The notes below the pieces were generated by a model. That model had not been told where the DNA came from. It was given only the letters and a program-made list of their open reading frames with translations, and searched no databases. The translations under genes and the position numbers were made by a program. A stretch of DNA of 37,123 bases from a virus (lineage: Duplodnaviria > Heunggongvirae > Uroviricota > Caudoviricetes): IMG/VR virus record IMGVR_UViG_2713896795_000003, positions 1 through 37,123 of that record. One strand, 5' to 3'. How positions within the stretch are numbered: the stretch's first letter is position 1; each line of letters begins with the position of its first letter. Of this stretch, positions 29,145-34,808 are shown in pieces.

Positions 29145-29705
29145 TCACTGCTTTATTTTGGTATCATGGGTTTCACTAGCGGCTTCCTTCGCAGTCGGCT
29201 CAGAAACCTTGAAGTAAGATTGAATCTGCGGAAGCGTTATGATTACCGCAAGCATAGCGAGAACCGCACCAACGAGCCATTGGGTCGCGGTCATGGATGT
29301 TTTAATGCCATCAATTTGACCTTTGAGCCCTGCAACTTCGCCATTGCTAGCGAATATCTGTCCCTTAATTTCATTAAGTGACTGATTCATAGCTGTAAAT
29401 TGCTTAGATTGGAATTCTCTGAAAGCTGAAATTTCAGCGCGCATGTTAGCAGATATTAACTCAATTTCTGCTTTGTTTTGACCAAGCTTCGCGTCAATCT
29501 CTTCTCTTGATGGGCTGCCCATAGCATGCTCCTCAGTGTATTGTTTTCCAAGATAAGCGATATTATTGTTTTTGGTTATATCATTCTTGGTAACTGGAGG
29601 CGAAGCATTGGACTTTTCTCCTATGCCACCTGTCGACCCCATACGACCAAGCGTTCTCTTTTTCTCCGCTGCATGATCAGCATTTACGGCAGGAAAAGTA
29701 ATCAT
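29145..29705 (-). CDS. Hypothetical membrane-anchored coiled-coil protein (186 aa; alternative 125-aa form from ATG 29522)
   Basis: Heptad-like central region and C-terminal TM WLVGAVLAMLAVIITL; ATG 29705 has poor SD whereas internal ATG 29522 has GAGGAG at -7. Confidence 0.55.
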   Translation of the reverse strand: MITFPAVNADHAAEKKRTLGRMGSTGGIGEKSNASPPVTKNDITKNNNIAYLGKQYTEEHAMGSPSREEIDAKLGQNKAEIELISANMRAEISAFREFQSKQFTAMNQSLNEIKGQIFASNGEVAGLKGQIDGIKTSMTATQWLVGAVLAMLAVIITLPQIQSYFKVSEPTAKEAASETHDTKIKQ

Positions 29706-29712
29706 GGCTCTG

Positions 29713-29991
29713 TCAGCTTAATTTTTTTGATTCTTCGTGTTGAGAAACTATATACTTAGCCAGTTCAAGAAGTTGATTTTCACTCATGCGAATGTTGGCA
29801 ATTTGGTATCTAACTGGCTGAATCTCCTCATTATTAACCCAGTCTGAAACATGCTTAAAAAATGCTATTGAACCAAATCTTGCTCCGACATCCCCAAAAG
29901 ACGAGTAAGCAAATCCATCAGCATACTCATTTACAGCATCACTTGAGTCCTTGAAGATGGTTTCTCTGAAGTTCACTTTGGTATCTGTCAT
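29713..29991 (-). CDS. Hypothetical protein (92 aa)
   Basis: ATG 2 nt after mnt stop with AAGGA SD inside mnt 3-prime end (translational coupling). Confidence 0.55.
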   Translation of the reverse strand: MTDTKVNFRETIFKDSSDAVNEYADGFAYSSFGDVGARFGSIAFFKHVSDWVNNEEIQPVRYQIANIRMSENQLLELAKYIVSQHEESKKLS

Positions 29992-29993
29992 AT

Positions 29994-30242
29994 TTATTTA
30001 TCCTTACCATACATGGTCTTTAGCGTCTCAACATCGTGTTCAAGATCTATCAATCGTGATGCTATAGTTGCAAGGTCTAGTGCTTGAATGTGTTTATTTT
30101 TTTCGGTCCACGCTTCAAGTGCCGCGACCATCTCAGCATTTAATGAACGAGAATTAGCCTCAGCAAGTTCAATAAGACGTTCCTTTATCTCTACAGGAAG
30201 CCTCAGATTCACTTGAGGGTTTTTGTACTTACGATCAGACAT
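29994..30242 (-). CDS. mnt: Mnt-like ribbon-helix-helix repressor
   Basis: 82 aa; RHH motif VNLRLPVEIKERLIELAEANSRSLNAEMVAAL resembles P22 Mnt, plus C-terminal helical tail; divergent from arc. Confidence 0.65.
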   Translation of the reverse strand: MSDRKYKNPQVNLRLPVEIKERLIELAEANSRSLNAEMVAALEAWTEKNKHIQALDLATIASRLIDLEHDVETLKTMYGKDK

Positions 30243-30263
30243 CGCCGCATCCTGAATAATTTT

Positions 30264-30335
30264 TTACCACAGGATATGTAGGTATCTATTGACTATCAAT
30301 GCGTACCTAAATACTATGTATGCGTACCACATACA
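30264..30335. promoter_or_regulatory. Divergent overlapping promoters (Pmnt leftward, Pant rightward) with palindromic operators
   Basis: Pant -35 TTGACT 30289-30294 / -10 TACTAT 30312-30317; Pmnt -35 TTGATA (plus 30294-30299) / -10 TATCCT (plus 30271-30276); nested palindrome TAGGTA...ATTGA-cta-TCAAT...TACCTA 30279-30309; palindrome TGTATG-N7-CATACA 30317-30335. Confidence 0.5.
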
Positions 30336-30347
30336 ACGGAGGATACA

Positions 30348-30488
30348 ATGAAGGTTAAAACACTGCGTATGCCAGAGAAGCTAGAAAAAATTCTTGAAGA
30401 AAAAGCAAAGGAAGAGTGTCGCTCATTCAGTGCAGAAGTAATTAAACGGGTGCTGGACAGCCTGAAGAGGGAGGGGGTAACAGTGTGA
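30348..30488 (+). CDS. arc: Arc-like ribbon-helix-helix repressor (46 aa)
   Basis: Hand-translated MKVKTLRMPEKLEKILEEKAKEECRSFSAEVIKRVLDSLKREGVTV resembles P22 Arc; GGAGG SD 7 nt before ATG. Confidence 0.6.
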   Translation: MKVKTLRMPEKLEKILEEKAKEECRSFSAEVIKRVLDSLKREGVTV

Positions 30489-30658
30489 TTTGCTTGGATG
30501 CAGTAGTCAAAGAGATTGTGCTTACCATTTTGAGACCAAATTTTGTTCATGGCGAATCATTTGGCGCGAACGAAAAATTGAGAAGAGAAAGAGTATTCAG
30601 TGGCAAGCGCACGTTTTCAGAAGTGATGCTTGATGCGGCAAAGAAATCAAAACAGTGA
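30485..30658 (+). CDS. Hypothetical small ORF (57 codons, GTG start)
   Basis: GTG overlaps arc stop (GTGTGA) with G-rich SD; no ATG alternative; may instead be non-coding spacer. Confidence 0.2.
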   Translation: MICLDAVVKEIVLTILRPNFVHGESFGANEKLRRERVFSGKRTFSEVMLDAAKKSKQ

Positions 30659-30721
30659 AGCCCCAACTGCGGGAACAGTCAGGGCTTCGGTATCGTAAAA
30701 CCACGCATAGGAATTAACGAC
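30645..30721 (-). ncRNA. sar: Candidate sar-like antisense RNA covering the ant translation initiation region
   Basis: Minus-strand promoter -35 TTGATA (plus 30751-30756), 17-nt spacer, -10 TATACT (plus 30728-30733); minus-strand hairpin GAAGCCC...GGGCTTC (30657-30688) followed by U-rich tract. Confidence 0.4.
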
Positions 30722-31645
30722 ATGAAAAGTATAGCAACAGCAGTATCTACTATCAATGTACCATTCCACGGCGCAGAGCTTTATGTTGTCAATCACAACG
30801 GCGAACCGTACACCCCAATGAAACCTATCGTTGAGGGAATGGGGCTAGACTGGAAATCTCAACATAAGAAGATTTCTCAACGCTTCTCGAAGGGTATGGT
30901 GGAAATCACCATACCTTCTGCCGGTGGGGTGCAAGCCATGATTTGTATGGCTTTACGAAAATTGGCAGCTTGGTTGAACAGCATCAGTCCTAACAAAGTC
31001 CGCCCTGAAATCCGCGACAAGGTAATCCAGTATCAGGAAGAGTGTGACGATGTGCTCTATGAGTACTGGACTAAAGGCCATGTGGTTAACCCGCGCAAAG
31101 CTAAAAAGGCGTTGCCGGGGAAAATCACCACTGAACAGCAGGAAGCCATTAAACAACTCGTCATGAGTCGTGGTCAGTCTCTGCCAAAAGAAAAACAGGC
31201 GAAGGCAATGATTACCATGTGGTCGTCACTGAAATCCCATTTTGGATGTTCGTACAAAGAAATCAGTGAGGAGCAGTTTACAGAAGCACTGTCACTTGCA
31301 GCTCGAGTTCCACTTGAAGGTGAGTTCATTGGCAAACAAGAGAAGAAAGCAAACGAGCTTTCTGCAAAAGAAGCAAACAGCCTTGTATGGCTATGGGATT
31401 ATGCCAACCGCTCACAGGCATTATTCCGCGAACTTTATCCGGCATTAAAACAAATTCAATCGAACTATTCCGGCAGATGTCATGACTGCGGTTATGAGTT
31501 CTCCCGTATTATCGATATAGCGAGAGACGTTTTAATCAATCACTCACGAGATGTTGATATCAATGAGCCAGACGGACCAACGAATCTTTCCGCATGGATG
31601 AGACTTAAGAATAAAGAATTACCTCCTTCAGTACATAACTACTGA
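30722..31645 (+). CDS. ant: Antirepressor Ant
   Basis: 307 aa; N-terminal region ...LYVVNHNGEPYTPMKPIVEGMGLDWKSQ...LRKLAAWLNSISPNKVRPEIRDKVIQYQEECDDVLYEYW resembles P22 Ant from memory; follows mnt/arc. Confidence 0.8.
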   Translation: MKSIATAVSTINVPFHGAELYVVNHNGEPYTPMKPIVEGMGLDWKSQHKKISQRFSKGMVEITIPSAGGVQAMICMALRKLAAWLNSISPNKVRPEIRDKVIQYQEECDDVLYEYWTKGHVVNPRKAKKALPGKITTEQQEAIKQLVMSRGQSLPKEKQAKAMITMWSSLKSHFGCSYKEISEEQFTEALSLAARVPLEGEFIGKQEKKANELSAKEANSLVWLWDYANRSQALFRELYPALKQIQSNYSGRCHDCGYEFSRIIDIARDVLINHSRDVDINEPDGPTNLSAWMRLKNKELPPSVHNY

Positions 31646-31662
31646 CAGATAACCAACGCAAC

Positions 31663-31688
31663 AACCCAGCTTCGGCTGGGTTTTTTTA
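31663..31688 (+). terminator. Intrinsic terminator after ant
   Basis: CCCAGCttcgGCTGGG followed by TTTTTTTA. Confidence 0.75.
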
Positions 31689-31698
31689 TGCCCAAAAT

Positions 31699-31786
31699 TC
31701 ACCGTAGCTACTCAGCGGCTATGGCCTTGAGAGATAGCACTACACAAAAAGTGTAGTGCAAAAAGCAAACAAATACTCACCGTAGC
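31699..31786. repeat. Direct-repeat / inverted-repeat / direct-repeat element
   Basis: TCACCGTAGC at 31699-31708 and 31777-31786 flanking a perfect 9-bp-stem hairpin GCACTACAC-aaaaa-GTGTAGTGC (31737-31759). Confidence 0.4.
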
Positions 31787-32102
31787 CACGCTGCAGCGAT
31801 TCCTTTTATCTGGAGCAGATTAAATGACAGATATTATAAATAGGAATTGTTATTTAATAATATTTGAAAATGAAAATCATGGACGATAGGAATAAAAGTA
31901 GTACTTGTTATTTTTAAGTGACGCATTAAACGCATAAAGCATATGTCTGTTGATCAAGATTCTTGCTTGTTGTAAAATAATTGTTTTGTTCATGTTGCAT
32001 AGTTTTAAAATGGATAGAAGATTATTTTTCAAAACAATTGCATCTTTGTCTGCAGTCATTCCGTTTTCTTCAATATCTAAATTTTCAAACAGGATGACTA
32101 AT

Positions 32103-34808
32103 ATGCCTGAGATAACTCCAAATGTTGTAATTGGGATGCCTTCTCAACTCTTCACTATGGCGCGTTCTTTTAAAGCCGTAGCTAATGGCAAAATTTATAT
32201 CGGTAAAATTGACACTGACCCGGTAAATCCTGAAAACCAGATTCAGGTTTATGTGGAGAACGAAGACGGCTCTCACGTTCCTGTTTCTCAACCAATCATC
32301 ATTAACGCTGCTGGATATCCGGTATATAACGGACAGATTGCCAAATTCGTAACTGTGCAAGGCCATTCTATGGCTGTTTACGATGCTTATGGCACTCAGC
32401 AGTTTTATTTTCCAAATGTATTAAAATACGATCCAGATCAGTTTGGCCCAGACTTCAAAGAGCAGTTATCTCAATCAGGAGCATACATTAATGATGATTC
32501 AAAAGGTGATGCATTAATTGGTGTAAGGCAGCCATTTACCGGGGCTGTAACTATAACTCAGCATGAAAACAATGCTCTTTTCTTAAATGTAAAACAATTT
32601 GGAGCAATTGGGGATGGGAAATATCATCCATTATCTGAGTGGTTTTCTTCAATTTCTGAAGCAAAATCCTTATATCCTTTTGTTGACTCATTATCTCAGT
32701 CAATAGACTGGGCCGCGTGGCAAGCTGCCCTTAACACAGGAAAGGTTATTTATGGTACTGATAATGCGTATGTAATAACGGATACGTTAACACCTGTTTC
32801 TGGTGGTGGGATAATTTGTCTTGGTGTGGGCAAATGGGTCTCAGGATATACTGCAACATTTGCTCCTGATATTACCACAGGAACCACATTCCTGATGTAC
32901 GGGGTAGGAAATAAAAAATATACTGTAGATTGTGTTTCTAATATGGATGTTAGTGGTGGTGTGGTTTCTAATCCATCTTCCGAAGACCCGTATACAACAA
33001 CGGCACCTGCGTCATCATATGATTTATTGGATTTTACTAACGGTGATGCTAATGGGGCTATAAGAGCCACGCTTAAACCATTCTCTGCCGCAATATTGAT
33101 GCCTGAGACAGGATGTGTTCGTCTTGAGAACTTTCGTATTGTTCCATATTTCAATGGGCTGGATGGTTATAAAGACATTGCAAATACCGGTCTTGGCGAT
33201 GAGTGGGATGTAGGTATTTGGTCACGTGCTTCTTTTGGCAATGAATACCGCAATTTGCAGGTGGTTGGATACTGGCGCAAGACGGCACTTTTAAAAACGA
33301 ACATTCCTGTATCTGGCACGCTGGCCGCTCAGGGCGAGGATGAAAACTATTATCACTGTAGATTCCAAGGATTCAAGGGTGTTTCGATCCGCGCCCATGA
33401 TGTATTCCGAATTACAGCGGTAACGTCCAGCACTATCGAAATCCCATGGTCAGCAAGCCACACCTTCGAAACGTCCGGGGTTTTAAGATCTGGAGGCAGG
33501 AATTTCACTTATTCAGGATTATCCGTATCCGGTGATAAGTTAGTATTTACTGGAGTGTCTAACGCTTCTGAGGCAACAGTAGGTTCTACTATACGGCGAA
33601 ATGACATAGATAACTTTGGTATGGCGGGAACGCAATTTTTCGATTGCTACATTACCAGCCTGTATCACCACACACATCTGCTTGCCACATCGCAATACCT
33701 GTCTCAACCATTCAGCCGACCATCAGAGTGTATGGAGGTTTCAGGGGAACCAGTTCGCGGTGTACAGGTACATGCAGGAACCATTCAGGGATGGGATGAT
33801 GTTCTTATTCATCTACATGACTGTGGAAATATGAACTTTTACAGTACATATTTCGAAAGCCAGCAAGCATATGTAACTATAAATGGTGGTAATGCTATTG
33901 GTTATGGAGCACGTATGATAGCTTCCCGGCAATCAACAAGCTCATTACCATATGCAGCAGGGAATACTCGAGTGCTTAGAATGGTCGGGTGCTCTGAAGG
34001 CAATGGCGTTGACTGGGGGCATGTATTTAACAACTATACAGGAGGAAGATATAATTCTGGAGACGGTGTATTTAACCCCCGCGATGCATTTATAGACCAT
34101 AAATCTCTTCCTGAGCAGTCAGGAGGTGAGTCAAGACTCGTATCACAAAAAGGAAATGCCAGAGTAGTATGTGGTGTTGGTAAAACTGTACTGCTTGGAC
34201 CAACGTCAGGAGATTGTAATTTACAGAGTAATACTGGAAGTTTAAATATTAGAAGTGGGATAAGAGTAAGAATCGGTCACGCTGATGGAACAGACTGGTG
34301 GTTGGCAGATGCTAATAAAATAGCTCCTGTTGATGATAATGTTAAAGCTATTGGACAGCCATCAAACAGATGCTCTGTTATTTATGCAGGAACCGGGTCA
34401 ATCAATACATCAGATGAAACTCTTAAAACAAGATATGATATTCTTAATGCAGAGCGTGATGCCGCTATTGAAATAAAGTCAGTCATCTATAAATTTAAAT
34501 TTAATGACTCAATTAATCACAAAGGAATTGAGTCGTCCAGGTATCATTTTGGCGTTGGCGCTCAAACCGTAGGGGATATTCTTAGAAAGCATGGTTTAAA
34601 CCCTGAGCAATATGCTTTTTGGTGTTACGATGAATGGCCTGACGTATGGGATGAAGAGGTGATAACTGAAGAGAGCACAGATCCTGATACAGGTGAGAAA
34701 ATTTATTCTCAATATAAAACAGGAGATATGATTCTTGTAAAAAAAGCAGGAGGACGCTACGGAATTCGTTATGACGAATTGGCTATGTTTATATTAATGG
34801 CAATGTAG
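32103..34808 (+). CDS. Tailspike: P22-type head-binding domain + beta-helix receptor-binding/depolymerase domain + C-terminal S74-type chaperone domain
   Basis: N-terminus [46 protein letters not shown]... resembles P22 tailspike head-binding domain; central QFGAIGDG pectate-lyase-like motif; C-terminal SDETLK motif; AGGA 8 nt before ATG 32103 (alternative ATG 32094). Confidence 0.85.

Follow-up and report, generated by a model that had tools for sequence, protein, structure and literature searches.

Between the P22-type antirepressor gene ant and the tailspike gene of a 37,123-nucleotide (nt) stretch of tailed-phage DNA (Caudoviricetes; IMG/VR record IMGVR_UViG_2713896795_000003, positions 1 to 37,123; hereafter referred to as the window, in which all positions are counted), two copies of a direct repeat flank a perfect hairpin at 31699–31786. 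What this element is, and whether the phage has any use for it, is the question that the locus raises; a preliminary description of the DNA had offered a recombination junction scar, a regulator site or a processing signal. Here we report a computational analysis, based on sequence, which indicates that the element is very probably a recombination scar enclosing a fossil of about 51 nt of an antirepressor-family gene (242 amino acids (aa), PHROG 1726; referred to here as X) between two copies of the start of the tailspike leader.

The 10-mer TCACCGTAGC, located by reading the sequence and with a repeat finder, lies at 31699–31708 and 31777–31786, and has no further exact copy on either strand of the 37-kb window. 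The repeat finder extends the direct repeat to 29 nt with 76% identity (31694–31722 versus 31772–31800). Between the copies, the arms GCACTACAC (31737–31745) and GTGTAGTGC (31751–31759) are 100% complementary and form a stem of 9 base pairs (bp) with a 5-nt AAAAA loop. A 176-nt stretch folds at −54.1 kcal/mol (z = −4.4), with none of 200 shuffled sequences as stable, and the repeat–hairpin–repeat architecture recurs in P22 and about 35 other phage or prophage loci. Thus, the unique 10-mer pair, the 29-nt repeat, the stability of the fold and the recurrence in other genomes place the element beyond chance. The sequence, the repeat finder and a terminator scan agree with the preliminary description in placing the repeat copies and the 9-bp stem just past the ant terminator; its further statement that they precede an AT-rich tailspike leader is right as to the order, but the AT-rich part begins only after a vestigial tailspike start (ATG at 31824). 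The element comprises the following features.

31694–31722, plus strand: repeat copy 1, corresponding to the opening ~29 nt of an epsilon34-type tailspike leader (AAAATTCACCGTAGC...GCGGCTAT), with the core at 31699–31708 (repeat family D1).
31723–31773, plus strand: gene X fragment, codons ~51–67 (..ELxGEHYTKSVVQKANK..), with an in-frame TAG at 31735–31737 (homology to intact X).
31737–31759, plus strand: perfect hairpin GCACTACAC-AAAAA-GTGTAGTGC, which in intact X encodes (E)HYTKSVV(Q) (inverted repeat I5).
31768–31773, plus strand: AACAAA microhomology of the right junction (comparison of X, the P22-like contig L276 and the window).
31768–31823, plus strand: repeat copy 2 and the remaining tailspike leader, L276-type (AACAAATACTCACCGTAGCCACGCTGCAGCGATTCC...GGAG...), with the core at 31777–31786 (comparison with L276).

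The leader repeat also has an imperfect inverted repeat of its own, CCGTAGC-CAC-GCTGCAG (31702–31721 and 31780–31798). In the predicted fold, copy 1 can pair through its 3′ half with the 5′ portion of copy 2 to give a longer helix enclosing the hairpin; this helix, which follows from the duplication of the leader start, is not conserved in variants.

The hairpin-bearing interior, which had been taken for a possible intergenic signal, reads instead as a fragment of an antirepressor-family coding gene. Positions 31733–31773 are 95% identical over 41 nt to the intact X of Escherichia coli KCJ3K291 (L006; hit H80 of a search of E. coli genomes), in which X is annotated as a hypothetical protein and lies directly downstream of a P22-type ant. 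The X protein matches PHROG 1726, ‘anti-repressor’, with an E value of 5.6e-98 and has no Pfam family match. A search with the interior alone showed the hairpin segment to be 89.5% identical over 38 nt to ant1 of P1-like phages, and in ant1 of two of these, JL22 and Ro157c2YLVW, the hairpin encodes ..D-G-E-H-Y-T-K-S-V-V-E... The homology extends beyond the hairpin: the flanks GGCCTTGA..GAT align to GAGCTTGATGGTGAG of X coding alleles, and the P22-type fossil aligns to X over about 60–85 nt. The order ant, X, tail or tailspike gene is found in L006 and in dozens of viral contigs. Furthermore, E. coli FDAARGOS_1288 (L007) and contig L015 carry the ant terminator, repeat 1 and then the same left junction as P22 and the window, past which the sequence runs on through the whole 3′ part of an X gene truncated at its 5′ end. 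In the window itself, the X frame reads ER*HYTKSVVQKANKY / ..ER*HYTKSVVQKANKYSP*, with no start codon and an open stretch of ~15 codons. Homology past the hairpin, synteny and lost coding capacity together assign the interior to the pseudogene fragments of PHROG 1726, and we regard 31723–31773 as a dead fragment of X, to judge from these alignments.

The two junctions of this fragment can be read by comparison with relatives. In epsilon34 and 611R6, one copy of AAAATTCACCGTAGC(C/T)AC is followed directly by GCTGCGGCGATTCC... of the tailspike leader, with no insert, and single-copy relatives read ...AAAATTCACCGTAGCCATGCTGCGGCGAT|TCCTTG... at this point. In the fossil-bearing loci L095 and L149, the left repeat still follows the leader without a difference as far as GCGGCGAT (...GCTGCGGCGAT) and then continues as X-like GGCCTTGATGGATAGCAC..., and X coding alleles at the left junction read ...CTCGAT|GAGCTTGATGGTGAGCAC... 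The left join is placed at a CGAT microhomology because the leader runs to GCGGCGAT and the coding alleles share CTCGAT. As for the right side, many P22-like contigs carry, in order, ant, X, sometimes a small open reading frame, a terminator, an Arc/Mnt-like gene on the reverse strand and the tailspike gene, and their leader contexts (...GTATGTAACAAATACTCACCGTAGCC in L276 and ...AACAAATGCCAACCGTAGCC in L207), compared with the window (GCAAACAAATACTCACCGTAGCC) and with X (GCGAACAAAACTTCG), place the right join at AACAAA. L276 reads ...GTATGTAACAAATACTCACCGTAGCCATGCTGCGGCGATTCCTTGTATCTGGAGCAAATTAAATG directly upstream of the tailspike, and L207 has TGCCAACCG, a variant of repeat 2 that is also seen in L095-type fossils. 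Repeat 1 (AAAATTCACCG) and repeat 2 (AAATACTCACCG) differ in the way that the two natural leader contexts do, and the direct repeats are best read as two alleles of the ~29 nt with which the tailspike leader begins. Of the three earlier proposals, the recombination junction scar is thus borne out, with both repeats being versions of the leader start and both junctions falling at short microhomologies (CGAT for the left one, AACAAA for the right one).

The Arc/Mnt-like gene, of the ribbon-helix-helix kind and identified only by reading its translation, lies just upstream of the tailspike leader in many P22-like contigs (L276 at 2130–2390 and L207 at 1930–2190, both on the minus strand), and a candidate promoter, TTGTTG-17-TACGAT, stands just left of the repeated leader sequence in contigs of this kind. 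In addition, the 9-mer TGACAGATA occurs in the window both at the ant stop (TAC TGA CAGATA, 31643–31651) and at the vestigial tailspike start (A ATG ACAGATA, 31825–31833), a coincidence that P22 and epsilon34 share over 8 nt. The pair could be due to chance, or could be a microhomology usable for deleting the whole intergenic region.

Comparison with P22-like relatives, the check that the preliminary description had named, gave a divided answer: the element is absent in most of them, and the hairpin is never broken where the element is present. A BLAST search against phage genomes matched 115 records, in which P22 and its closest relatives align to all of the query, though over a span of 223 nt, and epsilon34, 611R6 and others match in two pieces spanning 113 nt. 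Alignment shows an inserted unit at the leader start, of 110 bp in P22 and of 78 bp in the window, bracketed in both by the repeat. The P22 hairpin, GACCTACAA-AAAAA-TTGTAGGTC, differs from that of the window at three stem pairs, all of them compensatory, and the left junction of P22 is as in the window but its right end is different. The extra 32 bp of P22, AACTTCCGAAAAAGTTGTTTTATCAC, may, by a weak inference, be a decayed second copy of the terminator. These bases (L001, ~545–580) form a second AU-rich hairpin, AAAATAACTT-CCGAAA-AAGTTGTTTT, followed by TAT, which loosely resembles a decayed ant terminator tail plus ATGCCCAAAATTCACCG. This suggests that the P22 form arose by tandem duplication of the terminator and the leader start.

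The frequency of the element was assessed at 120 loci drawn from a viral-contig scan keyed on the ant terminator alone; a further tally of single-copy and fossil loci pools several scans and over-represents fossils. Fourteen of the 120 loci have a fossil known from the hairpin pattern and four have one with a variant hairpin (~15% together), and ~75% of relatives, such as epsilon34, have a single-copy leader with no fragment. Among E. coli prophages that share the window's AT-rich leader and tailspike, one (H118) has the 78 bp and three (H119–H121) are without exactly those 78 bp, so that their matches span 723 nt as against 801 nt in the query. With ~75% of relatives lacking the element and near-identical prophages differing by exactly 78 bp, ‘regulator site’ and ‘processing signal’ cannot, on this distribution, describe an essential function of it. 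The element instead appears as a dispensable recombination scar in the hypervariable ‘ant moron’. Its neighbours in the window are as follows.

30654–30720, minus strand: sar antisense RNA of the immunity I region (Rfam match, 76.6 bits).
30722–31645, plus strand: ant, a P22-type antirepressor gene of 307 aa, the upstream neighbour outside the element (list of open reading frames; Pfam P22_AR_N 5.7e-45 and P22_AR_C 5.2e-27).
31663–31689, plus strand: ant intrinsic terminator, with the stem AACCCAGC/GCTGGGTT (31663–31682) and a T7 run (terminator scan).
31824–31889, plus strand: vestigial canonical tailspike start ATGACAGATATT, encoding MTDI, in a 21-codon open reading frame that runs into AT-rich DNA (alignment with P22, epsilon34 and 611R6; list of open reading frames).
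~32094/32103–34808, plus strand: working tailspike open reading frame (list of open reading frames).

P22 and epsilon34 both have the ant terminator annotated at this position, and its sequence does not vary in the alignment of the window with its relatives. The terminator hairpin (CCCAGCTTCGGCTGGG) stands after X, not after ant, in L006 (3094–3113), and it occurs twice in L007 (3350–3370), after ant and after a small open reading frame that follows the truncated X; the ‘ant terminator’ may originally have closed an ant–X operon. Downstream of the element, the tailspike start MTDI is kept, but after four codons about 270 bp of very AT-rich DNA follow (31824–32103); it appears that a tailspike module was inserted just past the old start codon together with an AT-rich upstream region of its own. 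The displaced tailspike start is also present in contigs L112, L177 and L105, where the leader is single-copy, and in several E. coli prophages. The AT-rich segment contains a 60-aa open reading frame on the minus strand (31877–32059) and a promoter-like site on the plus strand (TTGATC-17-TAAAAT, 31950–31978).

These observations can be assembled into a course of events. The source would be X, which many P22-like prophages carry in the interval from ant to the tailspike gene, and two illegitimate joins would have left only ~51 nt of it in the lineage of the window. On the left, CGAT would have joined the opening 29 nt of an epsilon34-type leader (...GCGGCGAT) with X (...CTCGAT|GAGCTTGA); on the right, AACAAA would have joined X (...GCGAACAAA|) with the bases that immediately precede an L276-type leader (GTAACAAA|TACTCACCG...). 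Because of these two joins, the leader start would be present twice and be seen as direct repeats. L007 could be an intermediate form, or could have arisen later by recombination of a fossil with an intact X, and either order of the joins fits. Palindromes tend to attract replication slippage and deletion endpoints, and this tendency may explain why three independent breakpoints fall within about 17–27 nt of the hairpin. The hairpin of the window would be the one conserved within X, preserved by chance between the breakpoints. The element would be transcribed only on read-through of the ant terminator into the tailspike gene, the leader RNA then folding a stem–loop of about −15 kcal/mol, and could be lost again by recombination between the repeat copies. 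We infer that the phage has no present need of it.

The hairpin has a history of its own inside the X family. We collected X homologues independently of the hairpin, by peptide patterns downstream of it and by tblastn searches against phage genomes. The domain, annotated as anti-repressor or KilA, is found in P1, Shiga toxin 2a (Stx2a)-converting, P22-like, Klebsiella, Acinetobacter, Pseudomonas and Vibrio phages, and the hairpin lies at the same codons (..D-E-L-x-G-E-x-Y-...-V-x'..) in essentially all copies, 72–129 distinct intact homologues in all. The codons that precede and follow the stem are reverse complements of each other: CAC/GTG for residues H..V, ACC/GGT for T..G, TTT/AAA for F..K and AAC/GTT for N..V, with GGG GGT / ACC CCC in the 12-bp stem of Stx phages and GAA/TTC or ACA/(A)GT in the apical part of the stem. 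Among 29 enterobacterial sequences, 97.7% of stem cells are paired, with double changes at 6 of 9 pairs; among 72 distinct sequences from all groups, 95.7% are paired, with double changes at 5 of 8 pairs and 24–48% pairing in slid controls, all of these being raw counts over related sequences. A contiguous stem of at least 8 bp stands at the expected site in 109 of 123 unique sequences, against a chance of ~7% per window; this site-anchored count was used because lowest-energy sliding windows were too noisy in G+C-rich homologues. Synonymous sites are frozen at the hairpin: Val is encoded by GTA and Tyr by TAC in all 123 sequences, whereas GTA makes up 15% and TAC 51% of the respective codons in the rest of these genes; Glu is encoded by GAA in 67 of 67, as against 55% in the rest. 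The hairpin of the intact gene folds at about −14.9 kcal/mol, and its loop is 3 nt (ANT) in most homologues. The non-Watson–Crick stem pairs comprise 20 sense-strand G·U and 10 A·C (which would be G·U on the other strand), at most a weak indicator of the acting strand.

Compensatory pairing and synonymous constraint, both present in a sample drawn independently of structure, are what marks a structure-selected cis-element. We give an even chance to the proposal that the hairpin is such a nucleic-acid element, hitherto undescribed, at a fixed position in a widespread antirepressor/KilA-type family, with the fossil as a detached copy of it. The X-family protein appears to be forced into a ‘palindromic’ form, with CAC/GTG, ACC/GGT, TTT/AAA, GGG/CCC, TAC/GTA and GAA/TTC mirrored across the stem, and the mirrored codons point to a regulatory stem–loop role, the most plausible setting being the sense mRNA of a toxic regulator. 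Self-maintenance of a palindrome by template-switch correction, without selection, is also conceivable. Two general roles were considered and set aside: an internal start codon, as an ATG follows the stem in some alleles only, and a frameshift site, as a frameshifted copy was seen in 1 of 174, in PA2-type Stx phages only. In phage PA2 (L407, NC_028449, locus 774–1512; compare L405), the G-run of the 5′ arm has nine Gs, not eight, which splits the antirepressor gene into the annotated open reading frames gp15 and gp14; the G9 run may be due to a frameshift mutation, to phase variation of the tract or to an error in sequencing. A search of the literature with the hairpin sequence gave no match, and the papers found on the ant moron context do not describe the hairpin. 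Rfam 15 recognizes only C4, c4-a1b1 and sar on intact X genes, and its best match at the hairpin is RT-6, at 21.8 bits against a gathering threshold of 46.7.

The reading of the element as a scar without a present function has to be weighed against one in which the hairpin was exapted, still working in the tailspike leader RNA as an exonuclease barrier, a processing site or a factor-binding site, and tuning tailspike expression after read-through of the ant terminator; this would be compatible with an origin as a scar. Several observations tell against a scar that is merely inert and count for exaptation. The stem is intact in every fossil copy, with a paired hairpin at 13 of 13 P22-type loci and in 25 window-type copies gathered by hairpin-independent patterns. 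The P22 fossil has a compensatory double change of its own at the loop-closing pair, from C-G to A-T, and other fossil-specific changes, in L079 and L063, leave U·G pairs that are intermediates of such changes. The window-type sub-types differ at 6 positions in the 34 nt left of the hairpin and at 0 in the 40 nt of hairpin and right flank, and three independent breakpoints have each left the hairpin central. Moreover, the hairpin appears to be strongly selected in its parent gene family, and the P22 ant region is thought to set tailspike levels by transcription read-through (PMC2629481). This conservation could reflect retention for a function.

On the other side, the element is missing from ~75% of the relatives that share the terminator, the leader and the tailspike head-binding domain, and the near-identical prophages without it mean that it cannot be required. 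As there are few fossils and these are close relatives, their intact stems may simply reflect a recent origin, and the frequent absence favours a recent, easily lost scar. The fossil copies were obtained after context filtering, as the pattern GCGGCNATGGCCTTGA mostly gave chance matches; their hairpin variants (GCAC..GTGC, GACC..GGTC and the HYEIFVV-type GCACTACG-AAATTTT-CGTAGTTC) largely mirror alleles of the intact gene, which suggests recombination exchange with coding copies or origin from different alleles. We therefore consider exaptation improbable, and the narrower idea that the stranded leader copy in P22 and the window prophage is still recognized by the same factor as in X is likewise doubtful.

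A second alternative, which we regard as very unlikely, makes the 23-bp palindrome an operator bound by a dimeric immunity I repressor (Arc/Mnt-like or helix-turn-helix) that controls transcription into the tailspike gene. The palindrome is perfect, has 9-bp arms and lies beside a region rich in Arc/Mnt-type repressors, and its inner core, ACA(C/A)-N5-(G/T)TGT, presumably resembles phage operators. However, the outer arms vary freely but in complementary pairs (CAC/GTG, ACC/GGT, TTT/AAA and GGG/CCC), which is the signature of base pairing, not of sequence-specific protein contacts. In addition, the element is dispensable, and no promoter-like site was found at the hairpin or anywhere between 31690 and 31830.

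A miniature mobile element of the kind of miniature inverted-repeat transposable elements (MITEs) or repetitive extragenic palindromes (REPs), inserted in the leader with duplication of its target, would account for the repeat–hairpin–repeat look and for the ‘empty sites’ with one repeat in relatives. Yet there is one locus per genome; the window contains the repeat and the hairpin nowhere else, and homologous copies in other genomes are confined to this locus and to X-family genes. The interior matches a coding sequence colinearly and runs on, in L007, into the rest of X, the ~29-nt repeats are different leader alleles (AAAATTCACCG versus AAATACTCACCG), each fitting another natural leader context, there are no terminal inverted repeats, and the right end differs in P22. 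These features separate the element from MITEs and REPs and make the insertion of one extremely unlikely.

Hardly tenable, finally, is a second terminator or attenuator backing up the ant terminator on either strand: a stable stem does stand directly after a terminator, but its downstream flank is AAAAAGCAAACAAA on the plus strand (AAAAAGC) and TATCTCTCAAGG on the minus strand (TATCTCTC), neither with a T-run, and the terminator scan, which picks up the ant terminator at 31663–31682, lists the 31737–31759 hairpin on neither strand. Rfam 15, run over 29500–32500 at E ≤ 1, gave only sar matches. The boxB of lambdoid nut sites has a 5-bp stem and a purine-rich pentaloop starting with G (GAAAA or GACAA), with an adjacent boxA; the 9-bp stem with an AAAAA loop lacking the leading G does not fit this consensus (boxA was not searched for). 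A small open reading frame with its ATG at 31692 (MPKIHRSYSAAMALRDSTTQKV) was also rejected, as it has no ribosome-binding site, begins in the terminator tail and is not conserved.

The scar reading fits what is known of the locus. The ant moron of P22-like phages is hypervariable, with ten types in sixteen genomes, contains decayed antirepressor genes and is a hot spot of gene flux (Villafane et al. 2008, PMC2629481). The element would be another remnant at the same place, between the late structural genes and the tailspike, but it differs from the degraded genes described there in coming from a second antirepressor-family gene (PHROG 1726) instead of the P22 ant, in being only ~51 nt long, and in its position past the ant terminator, between the copies of a duplicated segment of the tailspike leader. 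We found no paper that describes this remnant, and a sequence search of the literature gave nothing. That tailspike expression is set by read-through of the ant–tailspike region is established (PMC2629481). P22 has the same terminator, left junction, repeats and hairpin in this region; the window differs in its 78 bp in place of 110 bp, its other right junction and the three compensatory stem-pair differences, and the hairpin is not the terminator.

Two further comparisons are informative. Like the deletion and duplication scars that form in E. coli at short repeats flanking palindromes, the element has 4–6-nt microhomologies near a hairpin, a duplication around an insert and the possibility of precise loss; unlike those products of slippage and illegitimate recombination, its partners would be different phage genomes or alleles, giving a mosaic, and not one molecule, a mechanism deduced from the junctions. 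Its likeness to MITE and REP elements with target duplications, in the repeats, the hairpin and the empty sites, is superficial, as the element is single-copy, with an interior colinear with a coding gene and 29-nt allelic leader repeats. Palindromes within coding sequence are known from mitochondrial genes of Nematomorpha (PMC6649704). There, as in X, inverted repeats lie in an open reading frame and the protein must accommodate mirror codons (in X, CAC/GTG, TAC/GTA and GAA/TTC), whereas X has a single short hairpin (8–13 bp) at one position in one phage gene family, with covariation across distant phages and no entry in Rfam.

The scar itself is ordinary, and the added value of the analysis is the conserved intragenic hairpin of the parent gene family. 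For the phages, reading the element as a scar would remove a candidate signal upstream of the tailspike, one that classic P22 carries as well, and would turn it into a record of the swapping of tail and immunity modules in the ant moron, whose legible junctions, microhomologies of 4–6 nt beside a palindrome, are useful for studying how phage mosaics form. Should the hairpin of X be a true cis-element, synonymous changes at it would not be neutral, a caution for the annotation and recoding of X-type genes, and it would represent a new and easily testable layer of control on genes that decide prophage induction.

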